DNA of 64,000 bases, from assembly GCA_964424195.1 (NCBI GenBank), contig CAYRHT010000001.1:207542-271541 (forward strand), in the 5' to 3' direction. The notes beneath the pieces are model-generated. The model was not told the DNA's origin. It did not search any database and saw only the letters and a list, made by a program, of their open reading frames with translations. How positions within the stretch are numbered: position 1 is the stretch's first letter; each line of letters begins with the position of its first letter. The position numbers and the translations under genes were made by a program. This document shows, piece by piece, positions 30,287-63,979 of this stretch. This DNA comes from an uncultured Gammaproteobacteria bacterium. GTDB taxonomy: Bacteria; Patescibacteriota; Patescibacteriia; UBA1558; S5-K13.

Positions 30287-30374
30287 GGAGGATTCGCCTA
30301 GTGGCCTATGGCGCACGCTTGGAAAGCGTGTTGGGTGCAAGCCCTCGAGGGTTCGAATCCCTCATCCTCCGCCA
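30287..30374 (+). tRNA. tRNA-Ser (anticodon GGA), type II with long variable arm, CCA encoded
   Basis: Acceptor GGAGGAT/ATCCTCC; D-arm CGCC..GGCG; anticodon stem CACGC/GCGTG with loop TTGGAAA (GGA); long variable arm TTGGGTGCAAGCCCTCGA; T-arm GGGTTCGAATCCC; 3-prime GCCA. Confidence 0.85.
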
Positions 30375-38618: not shown

Positions 38619-38695
38619 TTCGCGGTAGCTCAGTTGGTTAGAGCGACTGGCTGTTAACCAGTAGGTCGTCGGTTCGAACCCGACCCGCGAAGCCA
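38619..38695 (+). tRNA. tRNA-Asn (anticodon GUU), CCA encoded
   Basis: Acceptor TTCGCGG/CCGCGAA; D-arm GCTC..GAGC; anticodon stem ACTGG/CCAGT with loop CTGTTAA (GTT); T-arm GTCGG-TTCGAAC-CCGAC; discriminator G + CCA. The last 6 nt (AAGCCA) are also the first 6 nt of the 110-bp island repeat. Confidence 0.85.
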
Positions 38696-51640: not shown

Positions 51641-53785
51641 ATGAAAAATTTAAAAAAGGATTTAGAAAAAATAAATAATAAATCAAATATGAGTATTAAA
51701 AAAATTATAATTAGTATTATAGTTTTAGGAATTATTGGATTTATAGGCTATGTAGCTTTTAACCTTTATTTCCACAACGAATTTTTTAATTATCAGAATG
51801 TTCTGCAATCTCGTCCTAATACAGATGTATTAAAGAAGGATGTAATTCCTAAAGAAGTTAAGGCTAAGATTAAAAAATTTAAATCAGAAGAGGAATTTAA
51901 AGAGTATTTAAGTAAAGCTGGTAGTGATTCTCAATACGCTATGTATGGCTCAGGAATGAGAAATATGGCTGTTATGGAAGACTCTATAATGATGAAGGCT
52001 GAAACTTTAGCTGTTCCAAGTATGGATATGGATGGGGCTAGTGGAGGACAATCAGCAGAAAGAGTATCAGATACTAATACTCAAGTTTTGAGTATTGATG
52101 AACCAGATATTGTTAAAACAGATGGAGAAGATATCTATTATGCTCAAAATAACTATTATCGATACAAGAGTTTTGGAATGCCTCATAATCAAAATGCAGA
52201 GATTAAAGTTATTAAAGCTTTTCCACCAGCAGAGTTAGAAGAAATTGCTGAGATTGATAAGTCTGGCGATCTATTCCTTCATGAAAATACTTTAGTAGTT
52301 TTCTCTGGAAAAAGTATCTATGGTTATGATGTTAGTGATTCTCAAAATCCCGAAGAGAAATGGGAATTAGAGTTAGGAGATAATAATCATCTAATAGAGT
52401 CTAGATTGTATAACGGAGATATTTATTTAGTAACTAGGAATTATATTAATACCTATAGTCCTTGTCCAATTACTCCTTTTAGAATAGGTGAAGAAGAAAT
52501 AGAAATAAGGTGTGCTGATATTTATTACCCAACTATTCCAGTAGAAACAGATTCTACTTTTATTACTTTAAAAATTGATGCTCAATCTGGAGAAATAAAA
52601 GACAAGACTTCTTTTATCGGTTCTGCTAATTCCTCGGTAACTTATATGTCTGAATCAGCTATCTACGTCACTTACTTCTATAACAAAGATAACTTAGAGT
52701 TCTTTTCTAATTTCCTGAGCCAGAAATGTTCTGATTTAGTCCCAGAGAGCTTAATTAATAGCCTCAAGACCTTAAGTTCTTACAACATCAGCAATCAAGC
52801 TAAAATGACTGAAATGCAGGTTCTATTAGAGAAATTCTATACTGGTTTAGATAATGATGAAAGATTAAGAATAGAGAATGAATTTTCTAACAGAATGGAT
52901 GGATATCATAAAGAGCATATTAGAGAATTAGAAAAAACTGGAATTGTAAAAATTAATCTAGATGATTTTAAAGTAGATGCTAATGGAGAAGTTCCTGGTT
53001 ATCCTTTAAATCAATTTGCTTTAGATGAATATGAAGGTAATTTAAGAATGGCAACTACTGTGGGAGAAAGAACAGGTGGATTCTATTTCATTGGTAGAGG
53101 AGAGAGCTTAAATGATGTTTATGTTTTGGATAAGAAATTAAAGATAAAAGGCTCTGTTTTAAATCTCGGAGAAACTGAGAGAGTATATTCAGTTAGATTT
53201 GTAGGAGAAATGGCTTATGTAGTTACTTTCCGACAAACAGATCCATTCTATGTTTTAGACTTATCCAATCCTTCTCAGCCAGAATTAAAAGGCGAATTAA
53301 AGATTCCTGGATATTCTTCTTATCTCCACCCTGTTTCTAAGGATACTATTTTAGGAGTAGGTAAAGAAGGTTCCAAGGTAAAACTTTCTTTGTTTGACGT
53401 TTCTGATCCGACTGACCCTCAAGAAGTAAGTAAATATATGTTAGATGAGTATTGGTCAGAAGCAGTCAACAATCATCATGCTTTCTTATTAGACAAGAAA
53501 CATGGAGTATTCTTTATTCCTGGTGGAAAAGGAGCATATATTTTCTCTTATGATAATAATGAATTAACTTTAACTAAAGCTTTAAGTAAAACTGGAATTA
53601 AAAGAGCTTTATACTTAGATGATTACCTATACATCATTGGTCAATCTGAAATTAGTGTTTTGAATGAAAATGATTGGACTGAAGTCAATAAATTAGAATT
53701 TAGTGATATAGATAATTATGAACCAGTATTAGAAGATGATGATATGGAAAACCTTAGAGAAATAGAGGTTTTGAAGAATAGATAA
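51641..53785 (+). CDS. Membrane-anchored extracytoplasmic beta-propeller domain protein
   Basis: 714 aa; N-terminal TM; repeated strand-rich blocks (DGEDIYYAQNNYY, NGDIYLVTRNY, AIYVTYFYN, VRFVGEMAYVVTFRQTDPFYVLDLSNPSQPEL) typical of the Beta_propel family; located downstream of PadR. Confidence 0.6.
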   Translation: MKNLKKDLEKINNKSNMSIKKIIISIIVLGIIGFIGYVAFNLYFHNEFFNYQNVLQSRPNTDVLKKDVIPKEVKAKIKKFKSEEEFKEYLSKAGSDSQYAMYGSGMRNMAVMEDSIMMKAETLAVPSMDMDGASGGQSAERVSDTNTQVLSIDEPDIVKTDGEDIYYAQNNYYRYKSFGMPHNQNAEIKVIKAFPPAELEEIAEIDKSGDLFLHENTLVVFSGKSIYGYDVSDSQNPEEKWELELGDNNHLIESRLYNGDIYLVTRNYINTYSPCPITPFRIGEEEIEIRCADIYYPTIPVETDSTFITLKIDAQSGEIKDKTSFIGSANSSVTYMSESAIYVTYFYNKDNLEFFSNFLSQKCSDLVPESLINSLKTLSSYNISNQAKMTEMQVLLEKFYTGLDNDERLRIENEFSNRMDGYHKEHIRELEKTGIVKINLDDFKVDANGEVPGYPLNQFALDEYEGNLRMATTVGERTGGFYFIGRGESLNDVYVLDKKLKIKGSVLNLGETERVYSVRFVGEMAYVVTFRQTDPFYVLDLSNPSQPELKGELKIPGYSSYLHPVSKDTILGVGKEGSKVKLSLFDVSDPTDPQEVSKYMLDEYWSEAVNNHHAFLLDKKHGVFFIPGGKGAYIFSYDNNELTLTKALSKTGIKRALYLDDYLYIIGQSEISVLNENDWTEVNKLEFSDIDNYEPVLEDDDMENLREIEVLKNR

Positions 53786-55173: not shown

Positions 55174-56064
55174 ATGTCATCAGCAAACAGTGCTAAGATT
55201 ACTTTCTTTTATTTATTATCACTATTTAGTTTAGCTTTCGCAGCTATTTCTAGTGGAATGATCTTATTTCAAGTGATTAATAAATTAATTCCAGATGCAC
55301 TTAATTATAGTGGTCGATTTTCAGCAGAGGCTTTAAGATTTGGTATCTCAGCTGTAATTGTAGCTACTCCTGTGTATTATTGGATGACTTCCTTAATTCA
55401 AAAGAGTTTGAAAAAAGGGGAGTTAGATAAGGAGTCTCAATTAAGAAAGTGGATGACTTATATTATTATTTTAGTTTCCGCAATCGTAATTATTGTCTCT
55501 TTAATTGGAGTTATTAATAATTATTTAAGTGGTGATTTGACTAGTAAAATTGCTTTAAAAGTATTAACCACTATTATAATCTCCGGAGTTGTTCTTTCTT
55601 ACTATCTATACAATATTAAAAGAGAGAACTTTGAAAAAGAAACAGTAGTTAAGACATATTTCTGGTCTTCATTGGTTTTAGTATTAGTAATACTAGTTTC
55701 TGGATTTTTAGTAGCTGATTCTCCAGCTCAAGTTAGAAAGATTAAACATGATCGTAACATCATTAATGATTTAAATAGTATTAAATATCAAATTGAAAAT
55801 TACACTAGGAATTATGGAAAATTACCAGAAGATTTGAAAGATTTAAATATGCTTAAAATTGACTATTTTGAAAGAGATGGAGAGGTTACAGATTTTGAGT
55901 ATAAAGTTTTAGAGGATAATGAATACGAAATTTGTGCTGAATTTGAAACCAATAGTGAAGAAATGGATGATTTGTATGGTAATCAAAGAGAATGGCCTCA
56001 TAAAATTGGGAAAGAATGTTTTCAAAGAACTGTAAATTTAATAGACATTCAATTAAAAAATTAA
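55174..56064 (+). CDS. Polytopic membrane protein with C-terminal type-IV-pilin/GspG-like periplasmic domain, inserted between rplK and rplA
   Basis: 296 aa; about 6 TM helices in the N-terminal 190 aa. The C-terminal segment RKIKHDRNIINDLNSIKYQIENYTRNYGKLPEDLKDL resembles the helix/loop of pseudopilins (..DL..L..AL..Y..dnG.yP..L..L). Confidence 0.5.
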   Translation: MSSANSAKITFFYLLSLFSLAFAAISSGMILFQVINKLIPDALNYSGRFSAEALRFGISAVIVATPVYYWMTSLIQKSLKKGELDKESQLRKWMTYIIILVSAIVIIVSLIGVINNYLSGDLTSKIALKVLTTIIISGVVLSYYLYNIKRENFEKETVVKTYFWSSLVLVLVILVSGFLVADSPAQVRKIKHDRNIINDLNSIKYQIENYTRNYGKLPEDLKDLNMLKIDYFERDGEVTDFEYKVLEDNEYEICAEFETNSEEMDDLYGNQREWPHKIGKECFQRTVNLIDIQLKN

Positions 56065-56823: not shown

Positions 56824-56852
56824 TAAAAAGGAAGTCAATGACTTCCTTTTTT
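56824..56852 (+). terminator. Rho-independent terminator after rplA
   Basis: AAGGAAGTCA-atg-ACTTCCTT followed by TTTTTG. Confidence 0.65.
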
Positions 56853-56901: not shown

Positions 56902-58461
56902 ATGTCTAAAAAGAAAATAAAGCTAGGAGATTTGTATTTCATTGCCGCGGAAATAACACATGATACTATTTTTATGATGGGAGCTCCTGGTAAATATTTT
57001 ATGCAAGAATGGTATAAAATAGGATTTGGTAATTATTTGCATAAATGTTATTTTTATTTTCAAGGTGATTTTTGTCAAATGTGGTTTAAGAGATCAGAAT
57101 GGGATGCTCAGTCTAATTTTTTAGCTAATAAGATGATTGGCAAACCAGATTGGACTTTGAAGAAATTAAAAGATATTGAAATTTGGTCAAAGAATTTTAT
57201 GAAAGAGTCTAGTAAATTTGTTAAATTATCTTTTTCAGAAATGAGTAATCAGGAGATTATAAAAGCTTATAAAAAAGTTCATAAATGGCACAAATTATCT
57301 CATGGAATATCTCCAGCTTTAACTTGGATGGCTGATGCTGATGGTGAAAGAGTGAGTAAAGCAATTATTAAAATAGTAGATGAACAAATTAAAAAGCGAA
57401 AATTAAAATTAAATACAGCTTCGGTTTTTAGCATTTTTTCTAGTTCTATTCGAGATAGTTTTACTACTAAGGAAGAAAAGGAATTCTTAAAAGTATCTCA
57501 GAAAATTATTGAACAAAAAGATATTAAGAGAATTTTTCAAAAATTTAAATTAGAACAATTAGAGAAGGAATTGAAGAAAAAAGATAGGAAAATGTTTAGA
57601 CTTCTTTATTGTCATTATCAAAAATGGGCTTGGTTACTCTTTGGATATAAAGGTCCAGCATATAGTTTGGAATATTTTTTAGAGAGATGGCAAATAATTA
57701 TTCAGAAAAAAGTTTCTCCAAGCAAGGCTTTAAAAGAAATTAATGTTCAAAAAGAAGAAACTAAAGAAGAGCAAAAACAATTATTAAAAAAGTTAAAGTT
57801 TAATTCTAGTCAATTAAAGTTATTAAAAGTGACTCAAGAAATCCTTTTTATTAAAGAATTTAGAAAAGGAGCTTTGTATCATGGAATGTATTGTTATGAG
57901 CCTTGTTTTAAAGAAATATCACGGAGATTAGCTTTAACTATTGATCAAGTTTGGGCTATGCCTTCTTGGGAAGTATTAAATGTTTTAAAAACTGATCGAG
58001 TCGATCAAGATAAATTAAATCAACGTTTAAAAGAAGCTATTTGTTGTATAGATAGAAAAAATTATTTTGTTTATAGTGGGGAAAAAGCTAGAAAAATATT
58101 TAATAGTCTTTCAAAAGAAAAGATTCCTAATAAAAAAGATGTTCAAGAATTAACTGGAACTTGTGCTTGTCCAGGTTATGCTAAAGGGAAAGTTAAAATT
58201 ATAGAAGTTCCAGAAGATATGATTAAAATGAAAAAAGGTGATATTTTAGTTTCAGAAACAACATATCCTTCTTTAGTGCCAGCTATGAAAAAAGCCAGTG
58301 CTATTGTAACTAATGCTGGTGGTTTAACTTGTCATGCTGCTATAGTTTCTAGAGAATTAAAAATCCCTTGTGTAGTAGGAACTAAAATAGCTAATAAAAT
58401 TTTAGATGATGGGGATAAAGTAGAGGTTAATGCTAGTAGAGGAATTGTTAAAAAGATATAA
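56902..58461 (+). CDS. PEP-utilising-enzyme family protein: N-terminal helical/ATP-grasp-associated domain plus C-terminal swivelling phosphohistidine domain (paralog 1)
   Basis: 519 aa; C-terminal GTCACPGYAKGKVKII...GDILVSETTYPSLVPAMKKASAIVTNAGGLTCHAAIVSRELKIPCVVG matches the PEP-utilizers mobile domain with conserved T-x-H; no PEP-binding TIM barrel. Confidence 0.6.
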   Translation: MSKKKIKLGDLYFIAAEITHDTIFMMGAPGKYFMQEWYKIGFGNYLHKCYFYFQGDFCQMWFKRSEWDAQSNFLANKMIGKPDWTLKKLKDIEIWSKNFMKESSKFVKLSFSEMSNQEIIKAYKKVHKWHKLSHGISPALTWMADADGERVSKAIIKIVDEQIKKRKLKLNTASVFSIFSSSIRDSFTTKEEKEFLKVSQKIIEQKDIKRIFQKFKLEQLEKELKKKDRKMFRLLYCHYQKWAWLLFGYKGPAYSLEYFLERWQIIIQKKVSPSKALKEINVQKEETKEEQKQLLKKLKFNSSQLKLLKVTQEILFIKEFRKGALYHGMYCYEPCFKEISRRLALTIDQVWAMPSWEVLNVLKTDRVDQDKLNQRLKEAICCIDRKNYFVYSGEKARKIFNSLSKEKIPNKKDVQELTGTCACPGYAKGKVKIIEVPEDMIKMKKGDILVSETTYPSLVPAMKKASAIVTNAGGLTCHAAIVSRELKIPCVVGTKIANKILDDGDKVEVNASRGIVKKI

Positions 58462-58473
58462 ATAGATCATTTT

Positions 58474-59511
58474 ATGAATAAACAAAAACTTATTAGAATA
58501 GCTATTAGAGATCGTTCATTATTGAATGGTTATATTTGGCATAAAAACAAACGATTGTCTTATAAAACTTGGCTTGATTATTCTATAAAAAATGATGTTG
58601 TTATTCGCCCACCTAATAAAAAGATGTCTGTTTGGTTTGATCCTAATGAACTATATAAAATCAATAAACTTATTTTAAAAAAAATTACAAAAGATTCTTC
58701 TTTTGTAGATAGAATTGAAGAATCAGCACGTTCCGTATGGAAAGAACTGCAACCCTTTATTAGTAAAAAAAAGCCAATTAGTACTATTACTGAATTTCAA
58801 TTCTTTTTTCATTCATATATTCTGTGGTGGTCACATGTTTCAATATTCATGATTATTCCAGATATTGAAGAAATTCCTTTAGTGATTAAAGAAAAAGTAC
58901 TTGGGATACGTTCAAAGTATGAGAAATTTTCTGATGTTTCAGATCAATTACTACTTCAATATTTTAAAAAATATTTTCCAGATTATAAGGATATATCTAA
59001 TGTTATTAGTCCAGATGAAATTGTGTCTTTGTCAAAAAATACTCTTACTATTAAAGAGTTAGATGCGATAAAAAAGAGAAATAAGAGAGGTTGGGTATTA
59101 ATAAACGGCGAGCTGTCTAGTCATAATAATATTGAGAAGTTATTAACCAAACATCGTCTTAAGTTAACTACTGATATTGCCGAAACAAATATAGATAGGC
59201 TTGTAGGTATGTCGGCATATAAAGGAAACATTAGAGGTGTGGTTAAGTTAGTTTTTAATAAAAGAGATTTATATAAGGTTAAAAAGGGTGATATTTTGGT
59301 TTCTGATGCTACGACACCAGATTTTTTACCAGCAATGAATAAAGCTACAGGATTTATAACTGATGAAGGCGGAATTACTTCACATACTGCTATTGTTGCA
59401 AGAGAAATGAAGAAACCTTGTATAGTTGGTACTAAAATTGCTACTCAAGTATTAAAAGATGGGGATTTAGTAGAAGTGGATGCTGACAAAGGTATTGTTA
59501 AAAAAATATAA
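58474..59511 (+). CDS. PEP-utilising-enzyme family protein (paralog 2)
   Basis: 345 aa; C-terminal GDILVSDATTPDFLPAMNKATGFITDEGGITSHTAIVAREMKKPCIVGTK, the same swivelling His domain, with a distinct N-terminal domain. Confidence 0.6.
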   Translation: MNKQKLIRIAIRDRSLLNGYIWHKNKRLSYKTWLDYSIKNDVVIRPPNKKMSVWFDPNELYKINKLILKKITKDSSFVDRIEESARSVWKELQPFISKKKPISTITEFQFFFHSYILWWSHVSIFMIIPDIEEIPLVIKEKVLGIRSKYEKFSDVSDQLLLQYFKKYFPDYKDISNVISPDEIVSLSKNTLTIKELDAIKKRNKRGWVLINGELSSHNNIEKLLTKHRLKLTTDIAETNIDRLVGMSAYKGNIRGVVKLVFNKRDLYKVKKGDILVSDATTPDFLPAMNKATGFITDEGGITSHTAIVAREMKKPCIVGTKIATQVLKDGDLVEVDADKGIVKKI

Positions 59512-59532
59512 ATAGAAATTTATAGAAAAAAA

Positions 59533-59562
59533 TTCAAGCCCATGCAATTGCAAGGGCTTGAT
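59533..59562. terminator. Bidirectional terminator hairpin
   Basis: CAAGCCC-atgcaattg-CAAGGGCTTG; a T-run follows on the minus strand (AAAAAAATT on top) and a weaker U-tract on the plus strand. Confidence 0.5.
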
Positions 59563-59583
59563 TGTGATCAGAGTAAAACTTAC

Positions 59584-60201
59584 TTATAATGTTGCTTCAG
59601 GTGTAAATTTTACTACTGATAGAATGTTTTCTCCGTCTGAGAAAATGACGTAAGATTGACATTCTTTTAAGCTGATTTTATCAGCAGAAATTAATTCTTT
59701 GCGAGCCATAAAGATTGATGGCCCTGGTTCATGAGATGTTCCGAAAATGAAATTAGGTTCAGATTTAACACTAAAATCATAGATAGTATCCATTGCTTTA
59801 TCAAAAGGTTGGTCTCCAAACAATGATGGAAACTCAGCAAGTTGTTTGAAAATTTCTGGAATACTAAAGTCTTCTTTCATTTCTTTGAACCATTCTCCTT
59901 TGTTAATTTTTTTGGAACTAATAATTGAATCTAAGCGATCGTCTTGAACCATCTGTGACGGGTGAAAGGTTTCCCACAAAGTTAGACCCGTTCTAATTTT
60001 AGGGGAATGATGAAATTTTGGTTCTCCAAGTTCAGATAATCTGTAGATTAGTTCTCGATAATCAGGCTCTACTTTTTGACAAAGAGTAATGCCATATGGT
60101 GTTAATGTGCGTGCGTTGTTTTCACCTTCTGATATGCTTTCAGAATGACGCATAATTACTGCTACTTTCGTAGCTTCTTTGGGAATAATAATTCCACTCA
60201 T
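59584..60201 (-). CDS. Histidine phosphatase superfamily (phosphoglycerate-mutase-like) protein
   Basis: 205 aa; SD GGAGGAAATC before the ATG; N-terminal VAVIMRHSES (RHG-type catalytic His); later FGTSHEPG (second His region). Confidence 0.55.
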   Translation of the reverse strand: MSGIIIPKEATKVAVIMRHSESISEGENNARTLTPYGITLCQKVEPDYRELIYRLSELGEPKFHHSPKIRTGLTLWETFHPSQMVQDDRLDSIISSKKINKGEWFKEMKEDFSIPEIFKQLAEFPSLFGDQPFDKAMDTIYDFSVKSEPNFIFGTSHEPGPSIFMARKELISADKISLKECQSYVIFSDGENILSVVKFTPEATL

Positions 60202-60355
60202 GATTTCCTCCTGTTTTTTTTGCTTTATTTTTCTACCTTATTCTTTTATTTTAGGCATTATATTAATATATCATATTTTAACTAAAAAGTCAAGTATATT
60301 TTATCTCTAAAAATTGTTAAGATTAACTTGTATTATAAGTAATAATATTATATTT

Positions 60356-61300
60356 ATGAACAAAATTATACAATTTTCAAAAATCTCCAAAAAAGATGTT
60401 CATTTAGCTGGAGGTAAGGGAGCTTCTTTAGGAGAAATGACTCAAGTTAAGATTCCAGTACCAGAAGGTTTTGTGATTACTGCCGGTGTATTTGATGAAT
60501 TTTTGTTAGAAACAGATTTATACCAAGATATTAAGGCTCAATTAAAGAAGGTGAATTATCAGGATACTAATTCTGTTGATAAGACTTCTAATGTTATTAG
60601 AGACTTAATTAATGATGCTGAATTTCCGACAGAATTAGCAAAGGAGATTGTTCAAGATTTCAAGAAATTAAAATGTAAATATGTAGCAGTTAGAAGTTCA
60701 GCTACCGCAGAAGATTCTTCCACGGCTTCTTGGGCCGGTGAACTCGATACTTTTCTAAATACCACTGAAAAAACTTTAACAGATAATATTAAAAAATGTT
60801 GGTCATCTTTATTCACCCCTCGAGCTATATTCTACCGAAAAGAAAAGAAATTATTAAATGCTAAGGTTTCAGTAGCAGTAGTAATTCAGAAAATGATTCA
60901 ATCTGAAATTTCTGGTATTACTTTTACAGTTCATCCTGTAACTAAGGACAAGAATCAAATGATTATTGAAGCTGGTTATGGTTTAGGAGAAGCTATTGTT
61001 TCGGGAAGTATTACTCCTGATTCTTATGTGGTTGATAAAAGAGATTTTTCTATTCTAGATATTAATATTGCTGAACAAAGTAGGAAATTAATTCAAAAAT
61101 CAGTTAAGGGAGACAATAAATGGGTTAAAATTCCTAAGAAGGAAGGTGAAAAACAAGTTTTAAGTGGTAAGCAGATAATAGAATTAGCAAAGCTTTGTGC
61201 AAAAATTGAAAAACATTATAAATTTCCTTGTGATATTGAATGGGCCTTTGAAAAGAGTAAATTCTATATCACTCAATCTCGGCCAATAACGACTTTGTAA
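60356..61300 (+). CDS. PPDK_N-type ATP-grasp nucleotide-binding domain protein (stand-alone N-terminal domain of PEP synthase / pyruvate phosphate dikinase / rifampin phosphotransferase-like enzymes)
   Basis: About 314 aa from the ATG at 60356 (the track starts at a TTG at 60314); KISKKDVHLAGGKGASLGEM...PEGFVITAGVFDEF...AVRSSATAEDS...SWAGELDTFLN...ISGITFTVHPVT is collinear with PPDK_N. Confidence 0.65.
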   Translation: MNKIIQFSKISKKDVHLAGGKGASLGEMTQVKIPVPEGFVITAGVFDEFLLETDLYQDIKAQLKKVNYQDTNSVDKTSNVIRDLINDAEFPTELAKEIVQDFKKLKCKYVAVRSSATAEDSSTASWAGELDTFLNTTEKTLTDNIKKCWSSLFTPRAIFYRKEKKLLNAKVSVAVVIQKMIQSEISGITFTVHPVTKDKNQMIIEAGYGLGEAIVSGSITPDSYVVDKRDFSILDINIAEQSRKLIQKSVKGDNKWVKIPKKEGEKQVLSGKQIIELAKLCAKIEKHYKFPCDIEWAFEKSKFYITQSRPITTL

Positions 61301-61380
61301 AATATTATTTTCGTGATATATTTAAGACAGGTTTGAATTATATTAATTTATAATAAACATTTTATTAATAATAAAAAAAT

Positions 61381-62520
61381 GTGAGTGCAGCATGGGAAAG
61401 ACCGGTGGAGGACAAAACATTAGAATTTATTAGACACGCAGATAAAGTCTCAAGTAAATTAACACCAGAGGATGTTTCTGAAGATGAAATTGAAAAAATG
61501 AGGGCTAAAGTTAAAGCTACTAATCCTGATATTGATGATTCTGATGAAGAATCGCTTCGCAATTTAGTTTTATTAGAAAAAGATTCTGCGGTTTTCGGAC
61601 CAGAAATTGATGGAAAAAAAGAGAAATCTTCTATTACTTTTGCTGGTATTTTGAGAACTCAACAAGAGGCTAAAGAATTTGCAAAAAAAATGGAGCATTC
61701 TGATGAGGAAGCGGTTATTATTATAGGTCCTGGAAGTCCTAAGGATCGTTGTCAGGAGACAGAATGGATTTATGAACAAGAGCTTAAAAAAGCTCATGGT
61801 GTAGCTTCTGATGGCGTCTATAATGCACATAGTGAAGAAAATGGAATACCATCTCAGAAAGAGTTAGATGAAGGAGATTATGCTAGGGTTGCTTTTGTGA
61901 ATAACAAAAATATTGAAGGAATTGAAGCTGAGAAGGTTGGACCATGGGGACCAGAGTATCTTAGTCAAATGAAAGATTTAGTTAATGAATCGGTGGAAGA
62001 CAAAGAAACTCCTGCTATAAAAGTTTGGGTAGCCTTAAAGAATGAAGTTGATACTTTAAGAAAAGAATTTGTAGATCAAGGAATAATTGATGAAGATAAG
62101 TTAACAGAGATAGATCCAGCATTATTTAAAACCAAAGAGAATACTCCGGAAATGGTTGCTAGGGATGTTATTAAGTACTTTAAACAAGTTTTAGAAACAT
62201 GTTTAGAAAAATACCCTGATAGAGAAGTTCATTTTATTAGTGCTAGTCATAATATGATTTTAGATGTTGCTTCTTTAAGACTTTTGGGCCATAAAATAAG
62301 TAGAGAGAATTTAAAAGAATTAAAACTTCCTAATAATAAAGATTACGAAGCTAGTTTCCCCCTAGAGAGCAGGAGTATAAAATTTATCAAGGGTACACTG
62401 CTTTTTCATTTTAGGGGAAAGGAAAAGAAATTTACTACTAGAGATTTGGAAAAGTTAACTAAAGATGGTGGTACTCTAGATCAAGAGGCAGAAGAAAGAT
62501 TGAAAGAGTGGCAATCTTAA
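61381..62520 (+). CDS. Hypothetical protein, possibly histidine-phosphatase-like (GTG start)
   Basis: 379 aa from GTG; LEFIRHADKV (RHA) near the N-terminus and ISASHNMIL near the C-terminus fit an RHG...SHG phosphatase arrangement only loosely; start codon uncertain. Confidence 0.4.
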   Translation: MSAAWERPVEDKTLEFIRHADKVSSKLTPEDVSEDEIEKMRAKVKATNPDIDDSDEESLRNLVLLEKDSAVFGPEIDGKKEKSSITFAGILRTQQEAKEFAKKMEHSDEEAVIIIGPGSPKDRCQETEWIYEQELKKAHGVASDGVYNAHSEENGIPSQKELDEGDYARVAFVNNKNIEGIEAEKVGPWGPEYLSQMKDLVNESVEDKETPAIKVWVALKNEVDTLRKEFVDQGIIDEDKLTEIDPALFKTKENTPEMVARDVIKYFKQVLETCLEKYPDREVHFISASHNMILDVASLRLLGHKISRENLKELKLPNNKDYEASFPLESRSIKFIKGTLLFHFRGKEKKFTTRDLEKLTKDGGTLDQEAEERLKEWQS

Positions 62521-62545
62521 AACAAGAGAGTTTGATCAAAAAATT

Positions 62546-63979
62546 GTGTGGATTAAATATATCACAAGACGTTTAGCGGTTCAAGTTACTCAGCAATGGA
62601 ACTTTGGATGGGGAACTGCTATGGAAAAAGTTTATGGAGTATCTGTAAGAAATACTCTGGTTTTTCGTGATCAAAAAAAGACAGAATATTATGTGGATCA
62701 AAAAGAACATAATAAATATGTATTGGACTTATATAATCTTTTAGATAATAAGGTTTTTGTTAAAAATTTTCATAAGGACGCTCAGAAAAAGATAGAGGAA
62801 ATTTTTAAAAAGATAATAAATAAATTAGATATGGATCTGTCTAATTTGTCGAATGAAGAATTGATAAAACTTTATCAGAATTTTATTTTACCCAATACAG
62901 AAGAATTTTATGTTCGAATGTGGACTGTTTTTAATATTGGAAAACCACTCTCCATAGTGATTGAAAGAGAATTAAAGAAATATGTAAAAAATTCTAATAA
63001 GTTAATTAAATATTTATTAATTTTATCTTCTCCTGCAGAGCCCAACGATGTTTTAAATGAAAGAATAGATTTATTGAAATTGAAGATTTTAGAAAGTAAA
63101 ATTGATCAAGAAAATTTTTTACAGAAATTGAAGTTACATACGGAAAATTATAAACATATACCAATGTTTGACTTTGATCATAATCCTTATACCATATCTC
63201 ACTTTAGGAAAGAAATAAATCTTATTAAAAATCCAGAGAAGGAGATTAGAAAAATAAGAAAAGCGTTTGAAAAAAGAAAAAGTGATTTAAATAGAATTTT
63301 TAAGGAAATTAAACCAAGTCACAAGTTGAAAAATTTAATAGAGTTTTTAAAGGAAAATGTTTTTTTAAGAGATTATAGAGATATGGTTAGACAGAAATTG
63401 AATTTGCAATTAAGAAAATTTTATCAAGAAGTGGGTCAAAGATTAGACTTAAATGTTAAACAAGTTGCTGTTTTGACTAATGAAGAGATTGTTGAATATT
63501 TGAATAAAAATAAAAAATTTCCTAAGAAAGAAATAAAACAAAGGGAAAGGAATTATCTATTAATTCAAAAAGATAAGAAATATTGGGTTTATTCAGGAAA
63601 AAATGCTCTAGTTAAATTTAGGAAAGAGTTAAAAGAAGTAATAGAGAATAAAAAAATTTTAGAATTACATGGTATTATTGCATCTAAAGGTGTTGCTAAA
63701 GGTATTGTTAAAGTAGTTTATACTAATAAAGATCTTTATAAAATAAATAAGGGAGATATTTTAGTCGCTTGTATGACTAGACAAGATTTTGTACCAGCAA
63801 TGAGAAAATGTTCAGCTATTGTTATCGATGAAGGAAGTATTACTTGTCATGCAGCTATTATTGCTCGAGAATTAAGTGTTCCTTGTCTAGTGGCTATCAA
63901 ACAAGCTACTAGAGTTTTAAAAGATGGAGACTTAGTGGAAGTAGATGCAAATAAAGGGGCAGTTAAGAAAATTAAATAA
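62546..63979 (+). CDS. PEP-utilising-enzyme family protein (paralog 3)
   Basis: 477 aa (GTG start at 62546, alternative ATG at 62621); C-terminal GIIASKGVAKGIVKVV...GDILVACMTRQDFVPAMRKCSAIVIDEGSITCHAAIIARELSVPCLVA, the swivelling His domain. Confidence 0.6.
   Translation: MWIKYITRRLAVQVTQQWNFGWGTAMEKVYGVSVRNTLVFRDQKKTEYYVDQKEHNKYVLDLYNLLDNKVFVKNFHKDAQKKIEEIFKKIINKLDMDLSNLSNEELIKLYQNFILPNTEEFYVRMWTVFNIGKPLSIVIERELKKYVKNSNKLIKYLLILSSPAEPNDVLNERIDLLKLKILESKIDQENFLQKLKLHTENYKHIPMFDFDHNPYTISHFRKEINLIKNPEKEIRKIRKAFEKRKSDLNRIFKEIKPSHKLKNLIEFLKENVFLRDYRDMVRQKLNLQLRKFYQEVGQRLDLNVKQVAVLTNEEIVEYLNKNKKFPKKEIKQRERNYLLIQKDKKYWVYSGKNALVKFRKELKEVIENKKILELHGIIASKGVAKGIVKVVYTNKDLYKINKGDILVACMTRQDFVPAMRKCSAIVIDEGSITCHAAIIARELSVPCLVAIKQATRVLKDGDLVEVDANKGAVKKIK

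Follow-up and report, generated by a model that had tools for sequence, protein, structure and literature searches.

A cluster of six genes in the genome of an uncultured bacterium placed by GTDB in the Patescibacteriota probably encodes a split phosphotransfer system in which one ATP-binding subunit serves several phosphate carriers. The cluster occupies positions 56902-63979 of a 64,000-nucleotide stretch of forward-strand DNA (the window; assembly GCA_964424195.1, contig CAYRHT010000001.1, positions 207,542 to 271,541), and the closest homologues of its proteins are found in metagenome bins of Patescibacteria (candidate phyla radiation, CPR), so that the host is almost certainly a CPR bacterium. 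It contains genes for three carrier proteins (P1, P2, and P6), a stand-alone ATP-grasp protein of the PPDK_N type, and two histidine-phosphatase-like proteins (g3 and g5), and all six open reading frames (ORFs) are intact and were correctly delimited in a preliminary description of the sequence (Table 1). The favored reading, with a probability of roughly 70%, is a multi-component ATP-dependent dikinase of the rifampin phosphotransferase (RPH) type in which a single ATP-grasp subunit is used by all three carriers. The parts and the split architecture are already known. Three features appear to be new: several carriers per ATP-grasp subunit (a one-to-many stoichiometry), large arrays of ancient origin along with multi-module fusions in both CPR and DPANN organisms, and a dedicated, divergent histidine-phosphatase partner family.

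Carriers and ATP-grasp subunit of the cluster

Each of the three carriers ends in a phosphoenolpyruvate (PEP)-utilizers mobile domain (PF00391; the swivel domain), which forms the extreme C-terminus. The predicted catalytic histidine is His478 in P1 (58333-58335), His304 in P2 (59383-59385), and His435 in P6 (63848-63850), and it lies 41-42 residues from the C-terminus within the motifs GGLTCHAAI, GGITSHTAI, and GSITCHAAI, respectively. H478 of P1 is invariant among 43 family members. The preliminary description had proposed that the 519-, 345-, and 477-aa proteins share a C-terminal phosphohistidine carrier domain, and the PF00391 matches and intact histidine motifs in all three confirm this.

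The same description assigned a different N-terminal domain to each carrier, which proved to be incorrect. P1 and P6 align over residues 86-519 of P1 (~430 residues) with 30% identity (E 4e-49), and an N-domain profile matches P6 at 3e-69. BLASTP or hhalign alignments of P2 with P1 and P6 are confined to the last ~170-190 residues of P2 (hhalign against the P1-family profile: residues 178-345 only, E 3e-37). An iterated search with residues 1-230 of P2 recovered a recurrent class of short forms (340-370 aa) and also many long forms, P6 among them, whose N-terminal ~150 residues match in register. P2 is therefore a shortened version of the P1/P6 domain that lacks roughly 150 central residues. 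P2-like short forms are also present in other arrays and within fusions at loci L038, L056, L058, and L065 (see below). The N-terminal regions of P1, P2, and P6 are homologous, strongly diverged versions of one rifampin (RIF)-binding-like domain, with a pairwise identity of 26-30% in the substrate domains versus 53-58% in the swivel domains.

The relationship to RPH is clearest for P1, in which a helical substrate domain resembling the RIF-binding domain (residues ~1-400) is followed by the swivel phosphohistidine domain (residues 416-519). An AlphaFold2 model of P1 (pLDDT 93, pTM 0.89) was compared with the PDB using Foldseek, and the six top matches are all RPH-Lm (including 5fbu/5hv1; E 4e-13 to 2e-11), with a TMq of 0.53-0.58 over 518-596 aligned columns. 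Because these matches cover both the rifampin-binding and the swivel domains, P1 corresponds to RPH minus its ATP-grasp domain; pyruvate phosphate dikinase (PPDK), pyruvate kinase, and enzyme I match the model in the swivel domain only. A 43-member profile of the P1 family aligns with residues 615-866 of RPH-Lm, and NCBIfam alignments of P1 and P6 extend into the central domains of PigC, RedH, PRK06241, and RPH. The near-invariant K318, R321, and K322 of the P1 family align with the RPH Arg666/Glu667/Lys670 segment in a register that is uncertain by ~3 residues. In RPH, the segment with Arg666, Glu667, and Lys670 positions the phosphate (PMC4844700). The combination of a RIF-binding-like domain and a C-terminal swivel domain is complete in P1 and P6 and partial in P2, where the substrate domain is shortened, and in the carriers the catalytic histidine falls within ~50 residues of the C-terminus in a motif of the GGxT(S/C)HAA(I/V) kind. 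RPH itself (PDB 5FBS/5HV1) has the same three domains as the cluster and, by inference, the same swivel mechanism, and is the best structural match to P1. Unlike the cluster, it is a single polypeptide of ~865 aa; the identity to it is ~15%, and scores against RPH models are far below their cut-offs (55-284 bits for NF041857, cut-off 999).

The ATP-grasp half is encoded separately, as had been noted in the preliminary description, by a gene whose product matches PF01326 over its full length. The ORF also opens at a TTG codon at 60314, and the gene caller selects the 314-aa form. Among PDB entries, the subunit matches the isolated ATP-grasp domain of RPH (5hv6, E 2e-60) and also a chain of 387 aa that stands alone (9goj, E 1e-44), and alignment indicates that equivalents of RPH Arg117 and Thr136 are kept. 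By sequence, this protein is the predicted counterpart of HpeI, PpsB, and the N-terminal domain of RPH.

Split homologues of RPH have been characterized elsewhere, and for this reason the mechanistic idea of the preliminary description is essentially right. HpeHI, PpsAB (phenylphosphate synthase), and CreHI are biochemically characterized two-component ATP-dependent dikinases in which HpeI resembles RPH's ATP-grasp domain and HpeH resembles its RIF-binding and swivel domains (PMC12167813), and AcvAB is a further example (bioRxiv 10.1101/2022.04.28.489975). In these systems, as in the cluster, a separate ATP-grasp gene adjoins a gene for a carrier with a RIF-binding-like domain and a C-terminal swivel histidine, the GGxT(C/S)H motif is no more than ~50 residues away from the C-terminus, and the operon can hold a phosphatase (AcvF). 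However, the known systems are 1:1 pairs, while one ATP-grasp gene accompanies three carriers in the window and up to ten in related loci, and fusions reach 1:8. The window carriers are also 345-519 aa in length, whereas the catalytic histidine of HpeH is residue 581 (PMC12167813). In addition, the host organisms are CPR and DPANN with minimal metabolism, no aromatic-catabolic genes lie nearby, and the putative accessory phosphatase is assigned to the histidine-phosphatase superfamily and not to the HAD superfamily. The split small-molecule kinase family with a shared ATP-grasp subunit that had been proposed is supported in its core by the RPH fold of P1, the ATP-grasp residues, the published two-component dikinases, and the loci and fusions with one PPDK_N; the supposed difference between the N-terminal domains is not supported.

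The cluster shares homologous ATP-grasp and swivel domains with PEP synthase (PEPS) and PPDK, and presumably their dikinase chemistry in the ATP site as well, but unlike these enzymes it has no PEP/pyruvate-binding TIM barrel. Pfam searches for that domain (PF02896) found no match in any cluster protein, even at E<=0.1, in agreement with the preliminary description. Matches to the NCBIfam PEPS, PPDK, and RPH models are partial, with scores well short of the cut-offs; PEPS models give the highest scores for the swivel and ATP-grasp domains, the best being 112-345 bits versus a cut-off of 598. P1 has more than 6300 homologues, mostly in Patescibacteria, of which more than 100 are full-length orthologues, and full-length orthologues of the cluster ORFs are recovered at 97-100% coverage. 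Source databases name these homologues "phosphoenolpyruvate synthase/pyruvate phosphate dikinase" or "pyruvate, water dikinase." Since the cluster lacks the TIM barrel, it would make no PEP and these names are misleading.

Carrier arrays and their histidine-phosphatase-like partners

Species-representative genomes were scanned and 79 related loci (loci are numbered here with the prefix L) were fetched with ±8 kb of flanking sequence and analyzed by ORF calling and profile searches. Split carrier genes (a swivel domain without PPDK_N) occur in 64 of the 79 loci at 1-10 per locus, with at least three in 30 loci, and are nearly always co-directional and tightly packed. Arrays of 8-10 co-directional carrier paralogs are found in Patescibacteria-type bins (L019, L042, L017, L028, and L069), and many arrays extend past the fetched ±8 kb. 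A stand-alone PPDK_N gene never occurs more than once per locus and is present exactly once in 15 loci. In four loci, a single N-terminal PPDK_N domain is fused to two, four, or eight carrier modules, each composed of a substrate domain and a swivel histidine (Table 1). These ORFs are in frame and contain no ambiguous bases, and they are strong evidence that one ATP-grasp domain serves many carriers. Within arrays, the median identity of the substrate (N-terminal) domain is ~22% (maximum 33%) versus ~54% for the swivel domain. The paralogs are thus old and diversified, not recently duplicated.

The hosts are labeled as Patescibacteria (Nealson-, Taylor-, Uhr-, Falkow-, Woese-, Roizman-, Moran-, and Paceibacteria, among others) or as DPANN archaea (Micrarchaeota, Woesearchaeota, and Nanoarchaeota), with a few other labels, some of them doubtful. 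The presence of the carrier family in both CPR and DPANN must reflect transfer between the domains of life or else an adaptation that ultra-small symbionts have in common. No description of dikinase arrays in CPR or DPANN was found in the searchable literature. Other array neighbors (a TrmB regulator, tandem hexapeptide transferase, Pta, HAD, and HD genes) are sporadic at 3-5 loci each and were not counted among the core components. As a separate observation, DPANN-type arrays repeatedly have genes for tandem hexapeptide-repeat transferases and for phosphate acetyltransferase (PTA_PTB) beside the carriers.

The two remaining cluster genes had been described as histidine-phosphatase-like. Neither g5 nor g3 has a direct Pfam match, and direct PDB sequence searches with them gave nothing useful. 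The g5 protein has seven close homologues, and an exhaustive profile search recovered 50 distant ones of ~290-350 aa. Across 40 sequences of this family, R18, H19, R123, T127, P256, E257, H290, and R345 are invariant, and the family consensus RHGxK…LSExG…PSNxxRAxxTR…SHN is the signature of branch 1 of the histidine phosphatases. In g5 itself, the motifs are R18-H19 (61432-61437), S119-PKD-R123-CQE-T127 (61735-61761), and S289-H290 (62245-62253). Three of the 40 sequences match PF00300 (His_Phos_1; best E 5.6e-10) and one matches PF00328 (His_Phos_2). The g5-family profile finds phosphoglycerate mutase (PGAM) 3eoz as its top PDB match (E 0.007), and five of the six top matches are superfamily members; YKR043C, CobC, and Alr0221 are among the six and, together with 3eoz, align on the RHG…SxxxRAxxT segment. 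A structural model of g5 (pLDDT 63) gives weak Foldseek matches that include MINPP and histidine acid phosphatases (E 0.03-0.1) and PGAM.

The genomic association of the g5 family is consistent. A g5-family gene adjoins a carrier gene, a PPDK_N gene, or both, in the same direction, in all nine independent contexts (the window, L082-84, L085-87, L088, L089, L090, L091/92, L093, and L094). L091 repeats the parts list of the window (three carriers, a g5-like gene, and PPDK_N), and L019 and L042 show g5-type adjacency within large arrays. In L085 and L089, the gene right after the g5 orthologue is an orthologue of the P6 type, making g5-P6 a conserved gene pair. In one instance (L082:6930-7955), a gene for a 341-aa pyruvate kinase lies just upstream of a g5-like gene and carrier pair.

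The g3 gene is transcribed divergently from the ATP-grasp gene, and its only match among 5.8 billion proteins is to itself. Its motifs are R18-H19 (60145-60150), S66-P-K-I-R70-T-G-L-T74 (59980-60006), and S156-H157 (59728-59736). A BLASTP comparison of g3 with g5 for paralogy was empty, and hhalign of g3 with the g5-family profile places the two in register over RH…SxxxRxxxT, weakly (E 0.013). A regular expression for the ordered motifs of g3 matched 8 of 2243 ORFs; all of the matches other than g3 are His_Phos_1 (PF00300) or members of a second family, A4, with no demonstrable false positive. A small PF00300 gene on the opposite strand within the L069 array mirrors the arrangement of g3.

Members of the A4 family are divergent proteins of ~320 aa that are related to His_Phos_1 and have invariant RH, GxxRxRxxTA, and GxH motifs. 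They are found within the arrays of L005, L034, L036, L040, L057, and L069, and weakly in L018 (6-7 loci). Several members match PF00300, two of them above the gathering score, and hhalign aligns A4 with the g5 family at ~79% probability on the N-terminal and C-terminal catalytic segments. A histidine-phosphatase-family protein is therefore a recurrent, although not universal, component of carrier arrays.

Taken by their sequences, the label of histidine-phosphatase-like is supported for the 379-aa g5, through the catalytic set invariant in its family and the PF00300 and PGAM matches of its relatives, and is plausible for the 205-aa g3, which is assigned by motifs. The ordered RH … SxxxRxxxT … E … H signature of SixA and of His_Phos_1 proteins of the dPGM type is found in g5 as well and, at the level of motifs, in g3. 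Unlike those proteins, both are very divergent, and in g5 the RH motif is followed by an insert of ~60 aa and the C-terminus is extended. No description of a histidine phosphatase as a dedicated genomic partner of a dikinase was found in the searchable literature.

Proposed reaction and competing explanations

In the characterized two-component dikinases, the carrier histidine attacks the beta-phosphate of ATP, the gamma-phosphate leaves as inorganic phosphate (Pi), and the phosphohistidine phosphorylates a phenolic hydroxyl (PMC12167813; bioRxiv 10.1101/2022.04.28.489975). By analogy with RPH, PpsAB, and HpeHI, the stand-alone ATP-grasp protein (60356-61300) would bind ATP and the C-terminal swivel domain of P1, P2, or P6 would dock onto it. 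The carrier histidine would then attack the beta-phosphate to become pyrophosphorylated and be processed to phosphohistidine, with the gamma-phosphate released as Pi. The phosphohistidine domain would swing back onto its own N-terminal RIF-binding-like domain and phosphorylate a hydroxyl of the small molecule bound there, to give the phosphorylated product, AMP, and Pi. The swivel domain is conserved among P1, P2, and P6 (~54% identity) and the substrate domains have strongly diverged (~22-30%); the three carriers most likely act on three different substrates with one shared ATP-loading subunit.

The g5 protein, which is tightly paired with P6, and g3 are most likely accessory and would remove phosphate either from the product or from the phosphohistidine carrier. 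The preliminary description had proposed reversal or relay of phosphoryl transfer for the two genes, and for the g5 family a genomic link to the system is established. There is a precedent for each of the two hydrolytic possibilities. AcvF is a dedicated phosphatase in a dikinase operon (acv) and illustrates product hydrolysis (bioRxiv 10.1101/2022.04.28.489975), and SixA, a member of the superfamily, dephosphorylates the phosphohistidine carriers NPr and Ndk (PMC7948535, PMC12934123). In the HpeHI study, phosphorylation by dikinases of this type was proposed as a means of trapping diffusible substrates (PMC12167813). By the same analogy, a substrate-scavenging role in host-dependent CPR and DPANN cells is attractive, although purely inferential.

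Several observations weigh against a split dikinase of this kind. A kinase and a phosphatase acting on the same product would form a futile cycle unless a step lies between them, and none is encoded in the cluster. The evidence for the fold of g5 is weak (pLDDT 63, Foldseek E 0.03) and that for g3 is at the level of motifs. The alignment to RPH Arg666/Glu667/Lys670 can shift by ~3 residues and the glutamate is not conserved in the family consensus, P6 has GS and not GG ahead of its T-C-H motif, and P2 is without ~150 residues of the substrate domain so that its small-molecule binding may differ. Finally, 49 of the 64 loci with split carriers have no PPDK_N within the ±8 kb fetched, so that sharing of one ATP-grasp partner may not apply to all of them.

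It is quite improbable that the carriers are RPH-like resistance kinases that inactivate rifamycin-type or other antimicrobials from hosts or competitors, with the paralogs covering different compounds. Although RPH is the closest solved fold to P1, the identity is ~15% and the NCBIfam RPH models score 41-61 bits versus cut-offs of 999-1700. A survey of the CPR resistome lists rph-like matches, most of them in Microgenomates (PMC8651080), but the characterized split homologues are catabolic and not resistance enzymes (PMC12167813), and a dedicated phosphatase partner would reverse the inactivation. Diversified arrays are typical of defense or detoxification repertoires; against this, the array paralogs are ancient (N-domain identity <=33%) and the cluster lies amid housekeeping genes. 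An anti-phage role was also considered and rejected, as PADLOC models match none of the six cluster proteins.

A phosphorelay to proteins has a similarly low standing. According to this explanation, the phosphoryl group on the swivel histidine is passed to, or removed by, the histidine-phosphatase-like partner on its phospho-acceptor histidine, thereby priming a PGAM-type mutase or serving as a regulatory switch, and the helical N-domain is a docking platform for proteins. However, most arrays have many carriers and zero or one phosphatase-like gene, and the N-domain of P1 has the RIF-binding fold, which serves to bind small molecules in every characterized relative (PMC12167813). In favor of a relay are the strict conservation of the pair formed by g5 with a carrier or PPDK_N (9/9 contexts), the use of phosphohistidine throughout the histidine-phosphatase superfamily together with the action of SixA on phosphohistidine carriers (PMC7948535, PMC12934123), and the inclusion of enzyme I of the phosphotransferase system (PTS) in the swivel domain family.

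The idea that the cluster is what is left of a ppsA or ppdK gene broken into pieces, or a PEP synthase under a wrong annotation that has kept PEP formation, is effectively refuted. It draws on the PEPS/PPDK database names and on the best scores of the swivel and ATP-grasp domains against PEPS models, but those scores (110-345 bits) are below the 598-740 bit cut-offs, the PEP/pyruvate-binding domain is absent throughout the cluster, and the regions before the swivel domain are RIF-binding-like and not PEPS-like. None of the ORFs is broken, their full-length orthologues align at 97-100% coverage, and the architecture is common to two domains of life. Decay into pseudogenes or fragments, which the preliminary description had named as an outcome that would overturn it, is ruled out by the intact ORFs and the more than 100 full-length P1 orthologues, and a canonical PEPS or PPDK is ruled out by the absent TIM barrel and the scores below cut-off.

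A split dikinase with one loader and three carriers is therefore favored for the window. A wider proposal, tentative and rather unlikely, extends this to a modular "dikinase array" of CPR and DPANN organisms in which one ATP-grasp loader would charge many diversified carriers (up to ten carrier genes, or eight modules in one 3768-aa protein) and the divergent histidine-phosphatase partner would act on the phospho- or pyrophosphohistidine carrier or on the products. Such an array might serve as a broad phosphorylation platform that traps or activates metabolites scavenged from the host, a cytoplasmic functional analogue of PTS-type group translocation.

The findings bear on how these genomes are interpreted. 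Metabolic reconstructions of CPR and DPANN organisms that count these genes as gluconeogenic or rifampin-resistance genes are probably wrong, because the genes are widely labeled "PEP synthase / pyruvate, water dikinase" yet lack a pyruvate/PEP domain. In genomes of ~1 Mb, up to ~15 kb is taken up by arrays that are ancient and diversified, which implies an important function in episymbiotic ultra-small microbes. The layout of one loader with many carriers, together with the naturally occurring fusions, broadens the two-component dikinase subfamily that was recently defined and provides natural specificity variants. The conserved pairing with the g5 family suggests a direct tie between swivel phosphohistidine chemistry and phosphohistidine phosphatases or mutases.

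Genomic setting and neighboring genes

The G+C content is ~30% across the whole window. The cluster lies downstream of secE-nusG-rplK-DUF5671-rplA, and rplA is parted from the first cluster gene by a strong terminator-like hairpin that ends 51 nt before the P1 start. The intergenic gaps within the cluster are, in order, 12, 72, 154, 80, and 25 nt. This layout suggests three transcription units, P1-P2 (+), g3 (−), and PPDK_N-g5-P6 (+). A promoter scan of the 154-nt region between g3 and the ATP-grasp gene found promoter-like hexamers on both strands, at a count not above that of shuffled sequence.

Table 1. Features of the cluster (window coordinates) and of related loci (locus coordinates)
Feature	Location	Strand	Description
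Terminator-like hairpin after rplA	56825-56851	+	12-bp stem then T-run; upstream cluster boundary
P1, long-form carrier	56902-58461	+	519 aa; PF00391 E 1e-24
P2, short-form carrier	58474-59511	+	345 aa; 12 nt after P1; PF00391 E 4e-28
g3, orphan	59584-60201	−	205 aa; branch 1 histidine-phosphatase motifs only
Divergent intergenic region, g3/ATP-grasp gene	60202-60355	.	154 nt; putative feature, inferred only
ATP-grasp (PPDK_N) subunit	60356-61300	+	314 aa from ATG; PF01326 E 1e-99, full length
g5, divergent histidine-phosphatase superfamily member	61381-62520	+	379 aa; family-invariant motifs
P6, long-form carrier	62546-63979	+	477 aa; 25 nt after g5; PF00391 E 5e-23
Fusion, one N-terminal PPDK_N + 8 carrier modules	L038:4359-15662		3768 aa; Woesearchaeota
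Fusion, one N-terminal PPDK_N + 4 carrier modules	L056:4947-10937		1997 aa
Fusion, one N-terminal PPDK_N + 4 carrier modules	L065:5505-11591		2029 aa
Fusion, one N-terminal PPDK_N + 2 carrier modules	L036:2586-6056		1157 aa
A4 gene within array	L005:11632-12594
A4 gene within array	L036:9031-9990
A4 gene within array	L040:1815-2804
A4 gene within array	L057:5973-6938
A4 gene within array	L069:2530-3609
A4 gene within array	L034:6484-7410
Hexapeptide/PTA_PTB-type neighbor gene	L020:2903-4006
Hexapeptide/PTA_PTB-type neighbor gene	L025:10646-11785
Hexapeptide/PTA_PTB-type neighbor gene	L031:9492-10586
Hexapeptide/PTA_PTB-type neighbor gene	L035:2174-3289
Hexapeptide/PTA_PTB-type neighbor gene	L020:6069-7079
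Hexapeptide/PTA_PTB-type neighbor gene	L021:1899-2888
Hexapeptide/PTA_PTB-type neighbor gene	L030:3-647
Hexapeptide/PTA_PTB-type neighbor gene	L031:11695-12687

The DUF5671 membrane protein gene (55174-56064) interrupts the conserved secE-nusG-rplK-rplA block between rplK and rplA, and a gene for a 714-aa protein with an N-terminal membrane anchor (51641-53785) lies just upstream of secE-nusG. Two tRNA genes (30287-30371 and 38619-38692) are the sole Rfam matches at the gathering level in the window.

Immediately 3' of P6, beyond the window end, is a Fic-domain gene (L001:11598-12461, L002:3458-10053), which is followed by genes for EamA/flavokinase, dCMP deaminase, an AAA_17 kinase, dUTPase, ThyX, an unknown protein, and thymidylate kinase. 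In L082, a distantly related g5-carrier pair likewise lies ~3 kb upstream of thyX-tmk. The proximity to thyX-tmk could reflect synteny or a link to nucleotide metabolism.

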